In this document: piece after piece, positions 4,261 to 61,073 of the stretch | Layout: the number at the start of each line of letters is the position of its first letter | Position numbering within the stretch: position 1 is the first letter of the stretch | Assembly: GCA_965199715.1 (NCBI GenBank) | Contig: OZ241322.1 | Span: 2,016,001 to 2,080,000 of the forward strand | DNA length: 64,000 nt | DNA from: Vicinamibacteria bacterium | GTDB lineage: Bacteria; Acidobacteriota; Vicinamibacteria; Marinacidobacterales; Marinacidobacteraceae | Direction of reading: 5' to 3' | Made by a program: the position numbers and the translations under genes | Notes under the pieces: model-generated | Told to the model about the DNA's origin: nothing | Database searches by the model: none | What the model saw: the letters and a program-made list of their open reading frames with translations, nothing else

Positions 4261-4728
4261 ATGCGCACCTGTCTCGTCCTCGTCGTCTTCTCGCTCGCCT
4301 GCGGCGGTCCCCCGCCGGAGCCCGAGGAGATCGTCGTCGCCCAGCCAGTCGAGAAGACCCGTCTGAGCGGCCGGATTCCGCCGGTCGGCCCCTACTCGGC
4401 CGGCGTGGACGTGGGAGACACGGTCTTCCTCGCCGGTCAGATCGCGCTCAACCATGAGGGCGGCGGCCTCGTCGAGGGCGGGATCGCCGAGCAGACCCAC
4501 CAGGTCATGCAGAACCTGCAGGCGGTGCTGGAGGAGGCCGGACTGGGCTTCGCGGACGTCGTCCGGTCGGGCGTGTTCCTCGCGGACGTGAACGATTTCG
4601 CGGCGATGAACGAGGTGTACGCCTCGTACTTCCCCGAGGGCGCGATCCCGCCCGTGCGCACCACCGTCGCGGTCGCGGACATCCCGCTCGGGGCGCTCGT
4701 CGAGATCGACATGATCGCGGTGCGCTGA
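4261..4728 (+). CDS. RidA/YjgF family imine deaminase with lipoprotein signal peptide
   Basis: PVGPYS, AGQI, FAAMNEVY, PVRTTV (catalytic Arg), LVEIDMIA; N-terminus MRTCLVLVVFSLA-C. Confidence 0.9.
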   Translation: MRTCLVLVVFSLACGGPPPEPEEIVVAQPVEKTRLSGRIPPVGPYSAGVDVGDTVFLAGQIALNHEGGGLVEGGIAEQTHQVMQNLQAVLEEAGLGFADVVRSGVFLADVNDFAAMNEVYASYFPEGAIPPVRTTVAVADIPLGALVEIDMIAVR

Positions 4729-56288: not shown

Positions 56289-58379
56289 GTGCGCACCGTC
56301 GGCCCGGCTGATCGGGCCGCCGCGCACGCCCGCCCGGGGATTCCGCAGCGGGTCGCCTCCCGCGCCTTCCGGGTGCGCAGCCAGTTCCGTCCGGCCGGCG
56401 GCCAGGAGGCCGCGATCGACGCGCTGGTCGGGGGCCTCGACCGGGGCGACCCGCTGCAGGTGCTGCTCGGGGTGACCGGTTCGGGCAAGACCTACACCGT
56501 GGCGAAGGTCATCGAGGCCGTGAACCGCCCGGCGCTGGTGGTCGCCCACAACAAGACCCTCGCGGCGCAGCTCTACCAGGAGTTCCGGCAGTTCTTACCC
56601 GACAACGCCGTCGAGTACTTCGTCAGCTACTACGACTATTACCAGCCGGAGGCCTACGTCCCCCAGAGCGACACGTACATCGAGAAGGAGGCCACGATCA
56701 ACGAGGAGATCGACCGGCTCCGCCTGTCCGCGACCCGTTCGCTCTTCGAGCGCGACGACGTCCTGATCGTCGCGAGCGTCTCGTGCATCTACGGCCTCGG
56801 CTCCCCCGAGGCCTACTACGGGATGCTCGTGGCGTTCGAGGAGGGCGCGTCGTTTCCGTCGCGCCGGGCGCTGCTCGCCAAGCTCGTGGAGATGCAGTAC
56901 GTCCGCAACGACTTCGCGCTGGAGCGGGGGCGGTTCCGGGTGCGCGGCGACACGGTGGAGATCGTGCCCGGCTACGACGACGTCGGCCTGCGCATCCGTC
57001 TCTTCGGCGACGAAGTGGAGCGCATCTCCCGGTTCGACCCGCTCACCGGGCGCGAGCACTCGCGCGAGAGCCGGGTCACGCTCTTCCCCCGCACGCACTA
57101 CGTGGCGGCGGCGGAGGATCTGAACCGGGCGCTCGGGTCCATCCGCGCCGAACTGGACGAGCGCCACCCCGAGCTGCTGCGGCGGGATAAGCGGCTCGAG
57201 GCGCAGCGGCTCATGCAGCGGACGCTCTTCGACCTCGACATGCTGGCCGAGACCGGCCATTGCCACGGCATCGAGAACTACTCGCGTCACTTCACCGGGC
57301 GCGCCCCGGGCGAGCCGCCCCCGACGCTCATGGACTACCTGCCCCGAAACACGCTCGTGGTCGTGGACGAGAGCCACCAGACGCACCCGCAGATCCGCGG
57401 CATGTACGCCGGCGACCAGGCCCGCAAGCGCGTTCTCGTGGAGCACGGCTTCCGCCTCCCGTCGGCGCTCGACAACCGCCCGCTCAACTTCGAGGAGTGG
57501 GAGCGGCGGATCGGTCAGGTGATCGCGGTCTCCGCGACTCCGGGGCCCTACGAGCTGGACGCCGCCGGCGGCTCGGTGGTCGAGCAGATCATCCGTCCCA
57601 CCGGACTCGTGGATCCGGCGGTCGAGGTGCGCCCGGCGGGGAATCAGGTGGACGACCTGCTGGAGGAGATCCGCACCACTGTCGGGAACGGCGAGCGGGT
57701 GCTCGTGACCACCCTCACCAAGCGCATGGCGGAGGATCTCGCCGAGTATCTCCACGAGCTCGGCGTGCGCTGCCGGTACATGCACGCCGACATCGACACC
57801 CTCGAACGCATCCAGATCCTGCGCTCGCTGCGGCTCGGCGAGTTCGACGTGCTCGTCGGGATCAACCTGCTGCGGGAGGGCCTCGACCTGCCCGAGGTGT
57901 CGCTGGTGGCGATCCTCGACGCGGACCGCGAGGGGTATCTGCGATCCGAGGGCGCCCTGATCCAGACGATCGGACGCGCGGCCCGCAACGTCGCCGGGCG
58001 GGCCATCCTCTACGCCGACCGAGTGACCGGATCGATGGAGCGCGCGATCGGCGAAACCCGCCGCCGCCGGGCGCTCCAGGAGGAGCACAACCGGGAGCAC
58101 GGGATCGTTCCGCAGACGGTGGTCAAGGACGTCGCGACGCACCTCGTCGGCGAGACGGCGGACGCCGCCGCGATCGACGAGGACGACTGGGCGCGGGCCG
58201 TCGGCCTCCTCGAATCGCCCGAGGGAAGCCCCGAAGAGGTCGAGAAGACCGTGGTCCGCCTCCGCAGGGAGATGAAGAAGGCGTCGCGCGAGCTGGAGTT
58301 CGAGCGCGCCGCCAAGATTCGCGACCGCATCCGGGAGCTCCAGCAGTTCGCGTTGCTCCGCGACGCCGGCGAGGTCTGA
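56289..58379 (+). CDS. uvrB: Excinuclease ABC subunit B
   Basis: [52 protein letters not shown]. Confidence 0.99.
58335..58379 (+). repeat. Direct repeat copy 1: last 45 nt of uvrB
   Basis: 43/45 identical to 59119-59163. Confidence 0.95.
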
Positions 58380-58408
58380 CGAGGAACGTCGCCTGCTACC
58401 TTGTCGCG

Positions 58409-58971
58409 ATGAGCCTCTTGTGCGGCGATGAACCCTTCCACGCCAGCGGAATGCCGCGCAATGTCTCCCTGAGGGACTACTGGCGCCGGTCTTCGTCCAA
58501 CCTTCTGAACGACATCGAACGCGCCGCCCTCGTTCACGGTCTGGTCCGTCGTGTGTTCGGGCAGCCCACGGAGCCACGCGATCGTTGGGAGGCGCATGAC
58601 TTGGAGACCTCAGGCGGGATCAAGGTCGCCGTACGGACCACGGCCTACTTCTGTCGTGGGGTGACGGCCCGGCAGATCCAACGGGAATGGAGTTCGCCAT
58701 CGCTCCGCCCAAAGGGGGGACAAGGCGCACGACCGACGTGTACGTTTTCTGTGTGCTGGGAGACCCCGAAGCGACGGAACCTGATCCTCTGGACCTCGAC
58801 CAATGGGAGTTCTCCGTCCTTGGCGGGGCGATTCTGCACCGTGAGGCGGAGGGCCAGAAGAACATCAGCATTCGCCCGCTGGAGCGGCTCGTGAAAGCCG
58901 CGCCCGGGGCGGGACCCGTGAGGTACGACCGTCTCCGAGCGGCAATCGAGCGGCTTGCGTCGGCTGGATGA
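58409..58971 (+). pseudogene. Frameshifted homologue of the downstream PD-(D/E)XK-like protein
   Basis: DYWRRSSSNLL..HDL..AYF in one frame, then SW..DVYVFC..PDPLDLDQW..QKNIS in another; shift near 58652. Confidence 0.85.
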
Positions 58972-59118
58972 CCTCTCGCCGAACGAGGGCGGGGCGGTCC
59001 GAAAGAATTTCGCCCCGCCGCTCCAGACCCTCGGGGATCCCACTCCCGGTCGATGGCGGGCGCTCTCAGGGCGCGAGATCGATTCGTGACGAGAGTTGAC
59101 CCGCTGAGGGCGTCGGCC

Positions 59119-59163
59119 GAGCTCCTGCAGTTCGCGCTGCTCCGCGACGCCGGCGAGGTCTGA
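59119..59163 (+). repeat. Direct repeat copy 2: orphan uvrB 3' end including TGA
   Basis: Reads [14 protein letters not shown] versus [14 protein letters not shown] in uvrB. Confidence 0.95.
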
Positions 59164-59178
59164 GACCATCCGCGCGCC

Positions 59179-59784
59179 ATGCCTCGCCGAACCTTCCGCA
59201 AACGCGCTCCGCGGCGGCTGCTCGGCGGGGACCAGTCGTTCTGCGCTGGGGGCGCGCCACTCCGCTTCAGACCAGGGGATTACTGGCGCTGGTCCGGCTC
59301 CGATCTCCTGGGGAACACGGGGCGCGGCGTCCTTGCGGAATATCTGGTCGGATGCGCGCTCGACGCGGTGCGCGGTCCTCGCTTGGAGTGGGGCGCCCAC
59401 GACCTGCTCTTCGGCGCGGTCAAGGTCGAAGTGAAGAGCGCCGCGTACTTCCAATCGTGGCCCCAGAAGCGCGCTTCGCCCATCAGATTCGGAGTCGGGC
59501 GCCGCCGTCATGCGTGGGATTCCGAAACGGGTACGGAGGAGCGCGCCGACCCGCCGCAGCGGTGGGCCGACGTGTACGTCTTCTGCGAGCTCGGCGAACC
59601 AGGCGGCACGGAACCCGACCCGTTCAACCTCGACGAATGGCGGTCCTACGTCGCCAGTCGGGCCGTCCTGGACGAGGAGTCGGGAGATCAGAAGACCGTT
59701 TCCCGGCGCCGGCTCGGAGAAATGGGGTGCGCCGCATTGCCCTGCGACCAAATCCGCGCCGCGGTCGAGCGGGCCGCCCGATGA
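59179..59784 (+). CDS. Uncharacterised PD-(D/E)XK-like nuclease-fold protein
   Basis: RGVLAEYLV (E), HDL (D), VEVKSAAY (ExK), ADVYVFC. Confidence 0.75.
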   Translation: MPRRTFRKRAPRRLLGGDQSFCAGGAPLRFRPGDYWRWSGSDLLGNTGRGVLAEYLVGCALDAVRGPRLEWGAHDLLFGAVKVEVKSAAYFQSWPQKRASPIRFGVGRRRHAWDSETGTEERADPPQRWADVYVFCELGEPGGTEPDPFNLDEWRSYVASRAVLDEESGDQKTVSRRRLGEMGCAALPCDQIRAAVERAAR

Positions 59785-61073
59785 GCCTCGCCGACACGAT
59801 CCGCGAAAAGCACGACCGGTACGTGCTGCCGGCCGTCCAGACCTTCTACGACCAGCCCATGCCGGTCGTGAAGGGGGCCGGGAAGCACGTCTGGGACGCC
59901 GACGGGACCCGCTACCTCGACTTTTTCGGCGGCATCGTCACCGTCGGGCTCGGTCACTGCCACCCGGAAGTGAACGCCGCCGTCAAGGAGCAGGTGGACA
60001 CCCTCCAGCACTGCTCCACGCTGCTGCCGAACCAGCCGATGGTGGACGTGGCCGAACGCCTCGCCGCCGTGGCCCCCGGCGACTGCGACCGCAGCTTCTT
60101 CACGAACTCGGGCACCGAGGCCAACGAGATGGCCATCCTGCTCGCCGAGCTGCACACCGGGAGCAACGAGCTCATCACGCTCCGCCACGGCTACGCCGGA
60201 CGCAGCCTGATGACCATGAGCGCCACCGGGCAGGCGCCCTGGCGGCTCGGCGGCACCCACGTGCCCGGCATGAAGGTCGTGGCGAACGCCTACTGCTATC
60301 GCTGCCCCTTCGGCCTCGAGTACCCGTCCTGCGACCTGCGCTGCGCCCGCGACATCGAGGACGTCATCCAGACCACCACCTCGGGCCGCGTGGCCGGCTT
60401 CATCGCCGAGCCGATCCAGGGGGTCGGCGGCTTCATCACGCCGCCGCCCGGCTACTTCGAGGTCGCCGTCGAGATCGTGCGCCGCTACGGCGGGGTCTTC
60501 ATCTGCGACGAGATCCAGACCGGCTGGGGCCGCACCGGGACCCTCAACGGCATCGAGCACTGGGACGTGACCCCCGACGTCGTCACCTACGCCAAGGCGC
60601 TCGGCAACGGCGTTCCGGTGGGCGCGACCGTGGCCAGCGGCGCGATCGGCGCGGCGGTCACGGGAAGCACGCTCTCGACCTTCGGCGGCAATCCGGTGAG
60701 CATGGCCGCCGCCCGCACCGTGATCGACGTGGTGCGGCGCGACCGCCTCCACGAGAACGCCGAGCGCGTCGGCCGGCACTTCCGCGAGGGACTCGAGGAG
60801 CTGCAGGCGGCCCACCCGGTGATCGGCGAGGTCCGCGGCAAGGGCCTGATGCTCGCGCTGGAGCTGGTGAAGGACCGCGAGAGCCGCACGCCCGCTCCGG
60901 CCTTCACCGCCCGTTTGCTCGGGGCGGCGCGGGACGAGGGCCTGCTCATCGGCAAGGCGGGCCTGCACCGCAACTGCGTCCGCCTCTCGCCCCCGCTGAA
61001 CATCACCCGGGCGGACGCCGACGAGGCGCTGCGGCTCCTCGGGCGGGCGCTTGCCGCCGCCGCGCATCCGTGA
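59781..61073 (+). CDS. Class III PLP aminotransferase (AGXT2/GabT-like)
   Basis: FTNSGTEANE, AEPIQGVGG, DEIQTGWGRTG, AKALGNG, STFGGNP. Confidence 0.93.
   Translation: MSLADTIREKHDRYVLPAVQTFYDQPMPVVKGAGKHVWDADGTRYLDFFGGIVTVGLGHCHPEVNAAVKEQVDTLQHCSTLLPNQPMVDVAERLAAVAPGDCDRSFFTNSGTEANEMAILLAELHTGSNELITLRHGYAGRSLMTMSATGQAPWRLGGTHVPGMKVVANAYCYRCPFGLEYPSCDLRCARDIEDVIQTTTSGRVAGFIAEPIQGVGGFITPPPGYFEVAVEIVRRYGGVFICDEIQTGWGRTGTLNGIEHWDVTPDVVTYAKALGNGVPVGATVASGAIGAAVTGSTLSTFGGNPVSMAAARTVIDVVRRDRLHENAERVGRHFREGLEELQAAHPVIGEVRGKGLMLALELVKDRESRTPAPAFTARLLGAARDEGLLIGKAGLHRNCVRLSPPLNITRADADEALRLLGRALAAAAHP

Follow-up and report, generated by a model that had tools for sequence, protein, structure and literature searches.

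The question raised by the locus described here is how two deeply diverged nuclease genes, each preceded by a copy of the same 45-nucleotide (nt) uvrB tail, came to be stacked between uvrB and a downstream aminotransferase gene in the chromosome of a sponge-associated Vicinamibacteria bacterium. The locus is located in a window of 64,000 nt, i.e., the whole stretch of DNA that was analysed, which represents positions 2,016,001 to 2,080,000 of contig OZ241322.1 (GenBank assembly GCA_965199715.1); bare positions given below are those of the window, and all features described are located on its + strand. Here, uvrB (56289..58379), the product of which carries the Pfam UvrB_inter, UvrB, Helicase_C and UVR domains, and a class-III aminotransferase gene, designated AT (59781..61073; Pfam Aminotran_3, E 1.3e-103), orthologues of which are located directly 3' of uvrB in relatives, are separated by gene 1 (58409..58971), a dead nuclease gene by its sequence, and gene 2 (59179..59784), an intact one, both of the PF26887 type. 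The explanation that we favour, tentatively and at somewhat less than an even chance, is that two genes of separate acquisition became stacked when alleles of this junction recombined, without a recombinase of their own.

Organization of the uvrB/AT junction

The last 45 nt of uvrB, designated R1 (58335..58379), which constitute the functional 3' end of this gene including its stop codon, recur 784 nt downstream (start to start) as R2 (59119..59163), a displaced copy of the uvrB tail that differs from R1 at two bases (43/45 identical, 96%). R1 is followed by a 29-nt linker, L1 (58380..58408), which extends from the uvrB stop codon to the ATG of gene 1 (58409), while a 15-nt linker, L2 (59164..59178), connects R2 to the ATG of gene 2 (59179). 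A match like that between R1 and R2 was obtained in 0 of 100 shuffles, and a search of the whole 2.66-Mb genome for more copies of the 45-mer, as envisaged in a preliminary description of this DNA, returned none beyond these two. The edges of the repeat are sharp, with an in-register identity of 7-23% directly outside it, both upstream and downstream, and decayed uvrB homology was looked for upstream of R2 and not found. Furthermore, folding of the 45-mers with their flanks was no more stable than that of shuffled sequences (z -0.6 to +1.2), which gives no indication of an attC-like structure. A comparison of C-termini indicates that uvrB is five codons (DAGEV) longer here than in relatives, where its product ends in ALLR*, this being the uvrB end in 3/3 congeners and in 16 of the 18 family-level loci with uvrB directly before AT; the DAGEV codons and the stop codon that form the end of the repeat are missing from uvrB in every relative examined. 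These data bear out the preliminary observation that the uvrB tail, stop codon included, recurs 784 bp on with 43/45 identity, each copy being followed within 30 nt (29 and 15 nt) by a gene of the same family; the family, which had been described as uncharacterised, turned out to be a named one, i.e., PF26887.

The start of AT is duplicated as well. Its native copy, designated T4, comprises the first bases of AT (from 59779/59781), while T1 (58407..58417) is an exact 11-nt copy, CGATGAGCCTC, that provides gene 1 with its ATG and first three codons. This sequence is found only twice in the 64-kb window, at 58407 (gene 1 start) and at 59779 (AT start), as compared to an expectation of 0.07. The first codons of gene 2 constitute a diverged copy of the AT start, designated T3 (59179..59205), which agrees with AT at 24 of its first 31 bases when three small gaps are allowed (alignment score 13); this score was reached by 2 of 963 ATG-anchored 36-mers, which, judging from the scores, would be the AT start and T3 themselves. 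In both genes the nuclease homology starts just upstream of the first conserved motif, G-[DE]-x-x-F, and the TGA of an ATGA represents the stop codon of both nuclease open reading frames (ORFs). Each of the two tandem units is therefore composed of a uvrB tail, a linker, an AT start and a nuclease body, mimicking the native uvrB/AT junction, and the nuclease bodies are located within the first AT codons and not simply at the uvrB 3' end. The preliminary portrayal of the locus as a cassette at the uvrB 3' end with two nuclease genes thus stands with regard to an integrase-less stack, and requires amendment in that the proximal gene is, by its sequence, dead and that the AT start is also duplicated.

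The PF26887 nuclease genes

The family to which both genes belong is, on the basis of its homologues, PF26887, which is phage T4 endonuclease IV (DenB)-like with a PD-(D/E)XK core. Approximately 100 of the 120 homologues listed carry PF26887 labels (E down to 2.9e-47 to gene 2), and Atlas clusters name PF26887 Phage_T4_End_IV; the assignment draws on these precomputed labels and clusters, the PF26887 model being absent from the local Pfam copy, where neither gene 2 nor five homologues returned such a match.

Gene 2, the stop codon of which overlaps the AT start (ATGA), encodes a PD-(D/E)XK nuclease of 201 amino acids (aa) in which the catalytic residues E54, D75, E84 and K86 are present and the invariant positions are all kept. 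The nearest solved folds to its AlphaFold model (predicted local distance difference test score, pLDDT, 87; predicted template modelling score, pTM, 0.87) are those of NhoI and Eco15I-N (Z 7.5), I-Ssp6803I (Z 7.2) and PvuII (Z 5.2), where Z values under 8 can, according to the structure comparison tool, reflect a common arrangement, and where Foldseek E values range from 5e-3 to 2e-2. The gene 2 profile returned 0 matches to PDB sequences at E≤10, and gene 2 itself returned no match in the Pfam (local copy), NCBIfam, PADLOC and PHROGs libraries. Because the conserved residues are all kept and the PD-(D/E)XK fold is modelled with confidence, gene 2 is predicted to encode a metal-dependent DNA endonuclease that is probably active. 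No promoter-like site was found in 58200-59900; since gene 2 has no such site of its own, starts 15 nt behind a stop codon and ends in a stop codon that overlaps the AT start, it is likely to be expressed by read-through from uvrB, with translational coupling to AT. Candidate roles by analogy are phage defence, as for the BisI-family fold neighbours, DNA degradation, as for DenB, or a purely selfish one, while the repair role that had been put forward received no support beyond the adjacency to uvrB.

Gene 1 is broken into an N-terminal part (58409-58651) and a C-terminal part (58654-58971) in different frames. The frameshift is located at 58652/58653, where gene 1 reads TTC TG TCG TGG as compared to TTC CAA TCG TGG in gene 2, one base being missing after TTC. 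Its catalytic tetrad is H-D-A-R, whereas E-D-E-K is present in 258 of 269 aligned sequences (gene 1 and gene 2 included), and each of the other ten deviant sequences has at most two of the four catalytic positions changed. Gene 1 has also undergone an internal deletion of ~15 codons, and 12 of 29 invariant columns are changed, these being concentrated in the N-terminal half (11/19, versus 1/10 in the C-terminal half; Fisher p 0.019). Its sequence thus marks the uvrB-proximal gene as a dead pseudogene. Membership of a catalytically dead subfamily was considered and rejected, no such subfamily being found among the 269 sequences. As a side observation, a 94-aa ORF (58687..58971), starting with an ATG at the family's invariant I102, corresponds to the C-terminal half of gene 1 and keeps 9/10 invariant positions there; it could be due to chance or could be a retained functional fragment, e.g., a candidate inhibitor of gene 2. 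A stem-loop with a 9-bp G+C stem follows gene 1 (58988..59019; -16 kcal/mol, z -2.2), with 3 of 200 shuffles folding equally well.

The two proteins were confirmed to share the motifs DYWRxSxSxLL, HDL, AYF, DVYVFC, EPDP and QK that had been listed in the preliminary description, and are otherwise only 40% identical, with a DNA identity of 66.9% over 526 aligned columns. Within the genes the best 45-column window contains 34 matches, and the chance of 43/45 at the genes' identity is 4e-6. The discrepancy between a repeat of 96% identity and genes of 66.9% (DNA) and 40% (protein) identity excludes, as far as sequence comparison goes, a recent in-situ duplication. Furthermore, gene 1 scores 145 bits to the outside homologue P0051 as compared to 115 bits to gene 2, which also supports the preliminary statement that the locus is not a simple tandem duplication. 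Both genes look foreign by their G+C content at third codon positions (GC3), which is 0.72-0.79 for gene 1 and 0.80 for gene 2 versus 0.92-0.96 for uvrB, AT and ispH.

An older event, i.e., an in-situ tandem duplication of one acquired unit that was followed by divergence of the genes, while gene conversion kept the 45-mer alike, would account for the tandem layout, for the similar GC3 of both genes and for their long branches meeting at one unresolved node. Such an old duplication is nevertheless very improbable, because the insert is absent from congeners whose AT proteins are 86-90% identical to AT here, yet the two genes are 40% identical; because gene 1 and gene 2 have only one rare residue in common, as compared to three to four shared by each gene with its best family partners; because either gene has higher scores with homologues from outside the locus than with its neighbour; and because the linkers cannot be aligned beside a 96% identical repeat.

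Occurrence of the insert in related genomes and metagenomes

The lineage-specific stretch measures ~1.42 kb (58362-59780). AT directly follows uvrB in 3/3 complete congeners, and among 26 family-level loci with an AT orthologue, uvrB is located 8-322 nt upstream in 18, so that the empty sites for which a comparison with related genomes had been suggested do exist. The nuclease family was not found in any of 27 same-family genomes, while 4 of 33 other genomes searched contain it (six copies), mostly in a partial or broken form, making the family rare in the order (5/61 genomes, this genome included). The order-level copies (L008/L012 in G042, L009 in G041, L010 in G049, L011 in G030) are mostly damaged: one is frameshifted, one carries two stop codons and two are partial, with one of the six appearing full-length.

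As the genome is metagenome-derived and consists of two contigs, a chimeric assembly of two strains, or a sequencing error behind the gene 1 frameshift, had to be considered. The stretch is present in eight public runs from three studies (sponge metagenomes), one of which runs may be the source of the assembly. In two of these studies single contigs of 10,844 nt (depth 36-149) span it with 0 or 3 differences and without an indel at 58652, while in the third study it is recovered piecewise, with 0 differences. The same arrangement and frameshift are thus present in contigs from three studies, and an artefact of this kind, which the preliminary description had named as a risk, may practically be dismissed. 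The strain of one study carries three single-nucleotide polymorphisms (SNPs) in 2501 nt, none of which falls in the repeats or at the frameshift: these are located at 59068, 59454 and 59473, one being in the spacer between the units, one synonymous (Q92) and one changing A99 to P in gene 2. An excised 784-bp circle or a deleted form, the former having been anticipated earlier, was not detected as a joint skipping 784 nt in the contigs of four runs, which by their nature cannot reveal rare forms.

The same junction was found to be occupied by other material in further genera of the family. In genome G011 (C1:4047600-4050500, L155) uvrB and AT are separated by a gap of 2.3 kb that encodes an ion-transport protein and an exonuclease of the RNase_T type with a TerB-like region, in G006 (C1:665300-668100, L156) by a 2.2-kb gap, and in G015 (C1:3877200-3880400, L157) by a 2.7-kb gap with a DDE transposase, while uvrB and AT are widely separated in G007 and G014. 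Because unrelated insertions occupy this junction in other genera, it appears to be a generally permissive site. The uvrB tail as a dedicated landing pad for nuclease cassettes consequently remains hypothetical: the junction also accepts unrelated insertions, and of the 86 other family loci inspected none adjoins uvrB.

Origin of the stack

According to the favoured explanation, i.e., recombination between junction alleles, gene 2 would have entered the first ~30 nt of AT in an older event, during which this stretch was duplicated (T3/T4, since diverged) and AT was kept intact. Subsequently, another allele of the junction, derived from a closely related chromosome and already bearing the different, inactive gene 1 after AT codon 3, would have recombined in front of it, with one crossover located within uvrB and an illegitimate joint formed 45 nt ahead of the stop codon of the resident uvrB. 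R1 would then represent the incoming tail, which now completes uvrB, while R2-L2-T3 would be the displaced resident junction. The two differences between R1 and R2 would be allele differences and not a clock, so that gene 1 may have been dead on arrival. Entry of gene 2 as the first of the two is favoured because the T3/T4 pair has diverged, in contrast to R1/R2 and T1/T4, which show near or full identity.

A number of points weigh against this explanation. L1 and L2 cannot be aligned although they adjoin 96% identical repeats, which is awkward for two alleles of one species. The spacer of ~100 nt that precedes R2 (59020..59118) is of unexplained origin, being single-copy in the genome, where no further copies were found, and not homologous to AT. 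A possible decayed copy of the AT start, GGATGACCTCTCGCCGAACGA (T2, 58966..58991), which overlaps the gene 1 stop codon, is weakly supported, its alignment score also being reached by 69 of 5000 random pairs and by 93 of 963 ATG-anchored 36-mers. The uvrB tail encoded by the repeat was found in 0 of 54 other genomes of the order and in no metagenome contig, and because it is seen nowhere else the postulated related donor would have to be unsampled. All eight runs contain the two-unit form, with no empty or single-unit allele of this species being seen, in contigs that drop rare variants. In a tree of the family, which is a quick tree only, gene 1 and gene 2 are located on long branches in one unresolved clade, making a sister relation possible. 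Finally, the order of events is taken only from the divergence of T3/T4 exceeding that of R1/R2 and T1/T4. The preliminary proposal that a foreign unit was added in front of a resident one thus finds agreement in that both genes look foreign by GC3, while the order of arrival that it implies is tentative. A decayed AT 5' region was also considered as the source of the spacer and rejected, local and global alignments and a diagonal scan revealing nothing past the first ~20 nt, except for the weak T2.

The reverse order would make gene 1 an old, decayed resident, with R2-L2-gene 2 being appended later upstream of AT, and R2 and T3 being short templated copies laid down at an illegitimate junction during break repair. 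This fits the functional state of the genes, the old copy being dead and the new one intact, as well as the sharp edges and lack of structure of R (fold z near 0). Two further insertions of family members are also in line with it. In the Spirochaetia, 3 of 15 relatives carry the gene right after the stop codon of livM (livM-type permease), and the other 12 lack it. The inserted DNA took the place of the intergenic region and of the 5' portion of a small ORF (empty site L118:2842-3021), a candidate toxin gene for which Pfam returned no match at E≤1e-5, and a 34-nt copy of a livM segment located 1.3 kb upstream is present exactly at the far insertion junction, with TCCGG microhomology (L030:3277-3310, 4591-4624). 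On a Dehalococcoidia contig (L032) a member is located between an intact convergent GNAT acetyltransferase gene and, beyond the nuclease gene, a fragment copy of this same gene, i.e., an internal fragment of 142 nt with 95% identity (671-815, 1870-2014); an empty site cannot be defined for this contig, no DNA match being found in 25 relatives. Templated fillers of 45 nt are, however, unusual, and the divergence of T3/T4, which exceeds that of R1/R2 and T1/T4, suggests that the gene 2-AT junction is the older one, leaving the reverse order unlikely.

It is also conceivable that the 45-mer is the core of an attachment (att) site used by a site-specific integrative element whose tyrosine recombinase is encoded at another locus, in which case the 739 nt separating the copies would represent a tiny or eroded element. 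Direct repeats including the 3' end of the target gene do bracket a segment, and the genome encodes eight tyrosine-recombinase domains (PF00589) above the cut-off, six of them in adjacent pairs. However, no recombinase gene is located between or near the repeats, the nearest above the cut-off being at C1:760737, more than 1.2 Mb from the window, with a single weak match below the cut-off at ~0.32 Mb; there is no third copy after gene 2; and the 45-mer is found nowhere else in the genome, the order or the metagenome contigs. The copies of the AT start would also be left unexplained, and the presence of a homologue just outside the 'element' would be left to chance. Site-specific movement is accordingly regarded as quite improbable. 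No PF00589 or PF00239 match was obtained in the window, which agrees with the earlier statement that integrases and transposases are absent from it as far as tyrosine and serine recombinase domains are concerned, transposase families not having been surveyed across the whole window. The adjacent recombinase pairs are located at C2:10024-11366, C1:759392-760737 and C2:305465-306810; two of these pairs score identically and probably represent a repeated element on both contigs.

Nuclease-driven homing

The family is large and widespread. A word-indexed search with gene 2 returned 881 homologues at E≤1e-3, and an exhaustive search returned at least 2020 clusters at 50% identity, with relatives being encoded in at least 561 stretches of species-representative genomes from many bacterial phyla and some archaea, and in at least 92 stretches of viral contigs. 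Many of the viral relatives (L158-L237) belong to one group of 50-70-kb gut phage contigs, related to a match to Faecalibacterium phage FP_Brigit, in which the gene is often located a few kb from the contig end. In many lineages the gene is inherited vertically. The neighbours in 35 other loci are diverse, being mostly housekeeping genes with some Uma2, PIN, HNH and AIPR genes, and no conserved partner, dedicated DNA methyltransferase or integrase was found among them. The upstream ORF, which in some cases is unverified as a gene, is co-directional in 25 of the 35 loci and often abuts the family member. The structural and neighbourhood surveys that had been suggested for the 201-aa protein thus yielded a PD-(D/E)XK fold and a solitary gene with diverse neighbours.

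These data bear on the possibility that members of the family cut the unoccupied uvrB/AT junction in a homing-like manner, with break repair copying the nuclease gene together with replacement flanks and with the dead proximal gene 1 being a spent invader in a homing cycle. Several features of the locus point in this direction. Two deeply diverged members of a locally rare family are located within a few tens of nt of one site, for which targeting or selection would therefore be needed. The replacement flank copies, each accompanied by a displaced copy presumed to be native (R1/R2, T1/T3/T4), match the layout of mitochondrial mobile-ORF gene hybrids as outlined in PMC3630166. The fold of gene 2 is near that of the PD-(D/E)XK homing endonuclease I-Ssp6803I (Z 7.2; root-mean-square deviation, rmsd, 4.5 A over 118 residues). 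Polymorphism between empty and occupied forms of a conserved site is seen here (3/3 congeners and 18/26 loci being empty) and at the second, unrelated site in the Spirochaetia (3/15 relatives). Many copies in the order are broken or partial. Furthermore, flanking direct repeats are present at 6 of 78 other loci of the family versus 1 of 78 mismatched controls, the strong cases being L030/L026, L032 and L097. Diverged duplications of the flanks were detected by tblastx at 7 of 76 loci versus 1 of 76 mismatched controls, which, mostly representing paralogues or known cases, constitutes a modest signal.

Other results stand against such homing. Homologues at the same site in other genomes were not found among the 86 loci, 54 genomes and metagenome contigs searched, with none of the 86 loci adjoining uvrB, and no R-like sequence was detected upstream of 77 other members (best 26/45 versus 25/45 in controls). 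The diversity of neighbours and the vertical inheritance in some lineages are likewise not what homing would suggest, and the Z values of 7.2-7.5 fall within the range that the tool calls common. The T4 namesake is described as cutting single-stranded, deoxycytidine (dC)-containing DNA with low sequence specificity; the same junction has taken an insertion sequence and unrelated genes in other genera; and the comparison of 78 loci with mismatched controls covers loci of this family and does not address other accessory genes. Cutting of the junction by the nuclease is therefore considered doubtful as the origin of the stack, and it is similarly doubtful that bacterial PF26887 genes are free-standing homing-type elements, which are copied with both flanks and whose re-invasion stacks dead copies.

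Comparison with known systems

In fungal mitochondria, mobile-ORF (mORF) hybrids are described for Allomyces atp6 and for Glomus atp6, atp9, cox2 and nad3, in which an endonuclease ORF has entered the 3' end of a host gene, bringing a replacement for that end and moving the native one downstream (PMC3630166). These hybrids are organellar and encode LAGLIDADG or GIY-YIG endonucleases, with inserted and native ends being 64-81% identical. By contrast, the locus described here is located in a bacterial chromosome and involves a PD-(D/E)XK nuclease and a tail of 45 nt with 96% identity, the start of the downstream gene being duplicated as well, the enclosed nuclease being dead and mobility being putative. 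If homing were to apply, the locus would constitute a bacterial chromosomal counterpart of the mitochondrial hybrids with a different nuclease fold. By analogy, the locus can be classed with endonuclease cassettes that carry replacement flanks along, being distinguished by its position in a bacterial chromosome and by a nuclease of the T4 endonuclease IV-like type.

Integrase-borne islands resemble the locus in that a direct repeat regenerates the 3' end of the target gene. They differ from it in that there is no integrase here, no recombinase ORF being present between the repeats, and in that the content is tiny, no third att copy is present, the core is unique and the start of the downstream gene is duplicated as well.

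Among nucleases, I-Ssp6803I is intron-encoded, and its likeness to the gene 2 model is one of fold, with 118 aligned residues at 17% identity and no relation at the level of sequence. The same holds for NhoI and the Eco15I N-domain (Z 7.5 each; rmsd 4.2 A over 130 and 3.8 A over 118 residues, respectively), modification-dependent restriction endonucleases of the BisI family, for which the profile search of PDB sequences (E≤10) returned no match at the sequence level; a dependence of gene 2 on modified DNA would be hypothetical. BisI-family enzymes and PvuII are solitary, as is gene 2, with no methyltransferase partner among the neighbours examined. PADLOC weakly matched one homologue of gene 2 as mREase_II (E 0.007). 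T4 DenB is similar in size (~185-200 aa), and its AE[YF] helix and VEVK strand are matched to those of the family in a profile-sequence alignment; the direct similarity between gene 2 and DenB is weak (hhalign probability 6.8%, E 0.0054, 46 columns over both catalytic motifs), and a tblastn search against 50,697 phage records did not reach T4. DenB is described as a phage-encoded nuclease that is lethal in Escherichia coli and acts on single-stranded DNA containing dC, whereas gene 2 is located in a bacterial chromosome with ordinary DNA.

Should the nuclease's own action be what makes the flank copies, a large and widespread family, the cellular members of which are so far unstudied, would gain a selfish-element function, and the locus would illustrate how a tight junction between housekeeping genes can be invaded by single genes that have neither integrase nor transposase. 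Were the stacking passive, the locus would provide a clean natural example of foreign genes that borrow a host start codon and read-through transcription, with short duplications keeping both neighbouring genes intact.

With regard to gene neighbourhoods elsewhere in the family, three Latescibacterota loci (L036, L041 and L045) carry a family member followed by a gene for a Uma2-type putative restriction endonuclease. Four Latescibacterota loci share an upstream outer-membrane barrel gene, one of these (L039) being without a Uma2 match, while PIN-domain and HNH genes adjoin family members in several other loci.

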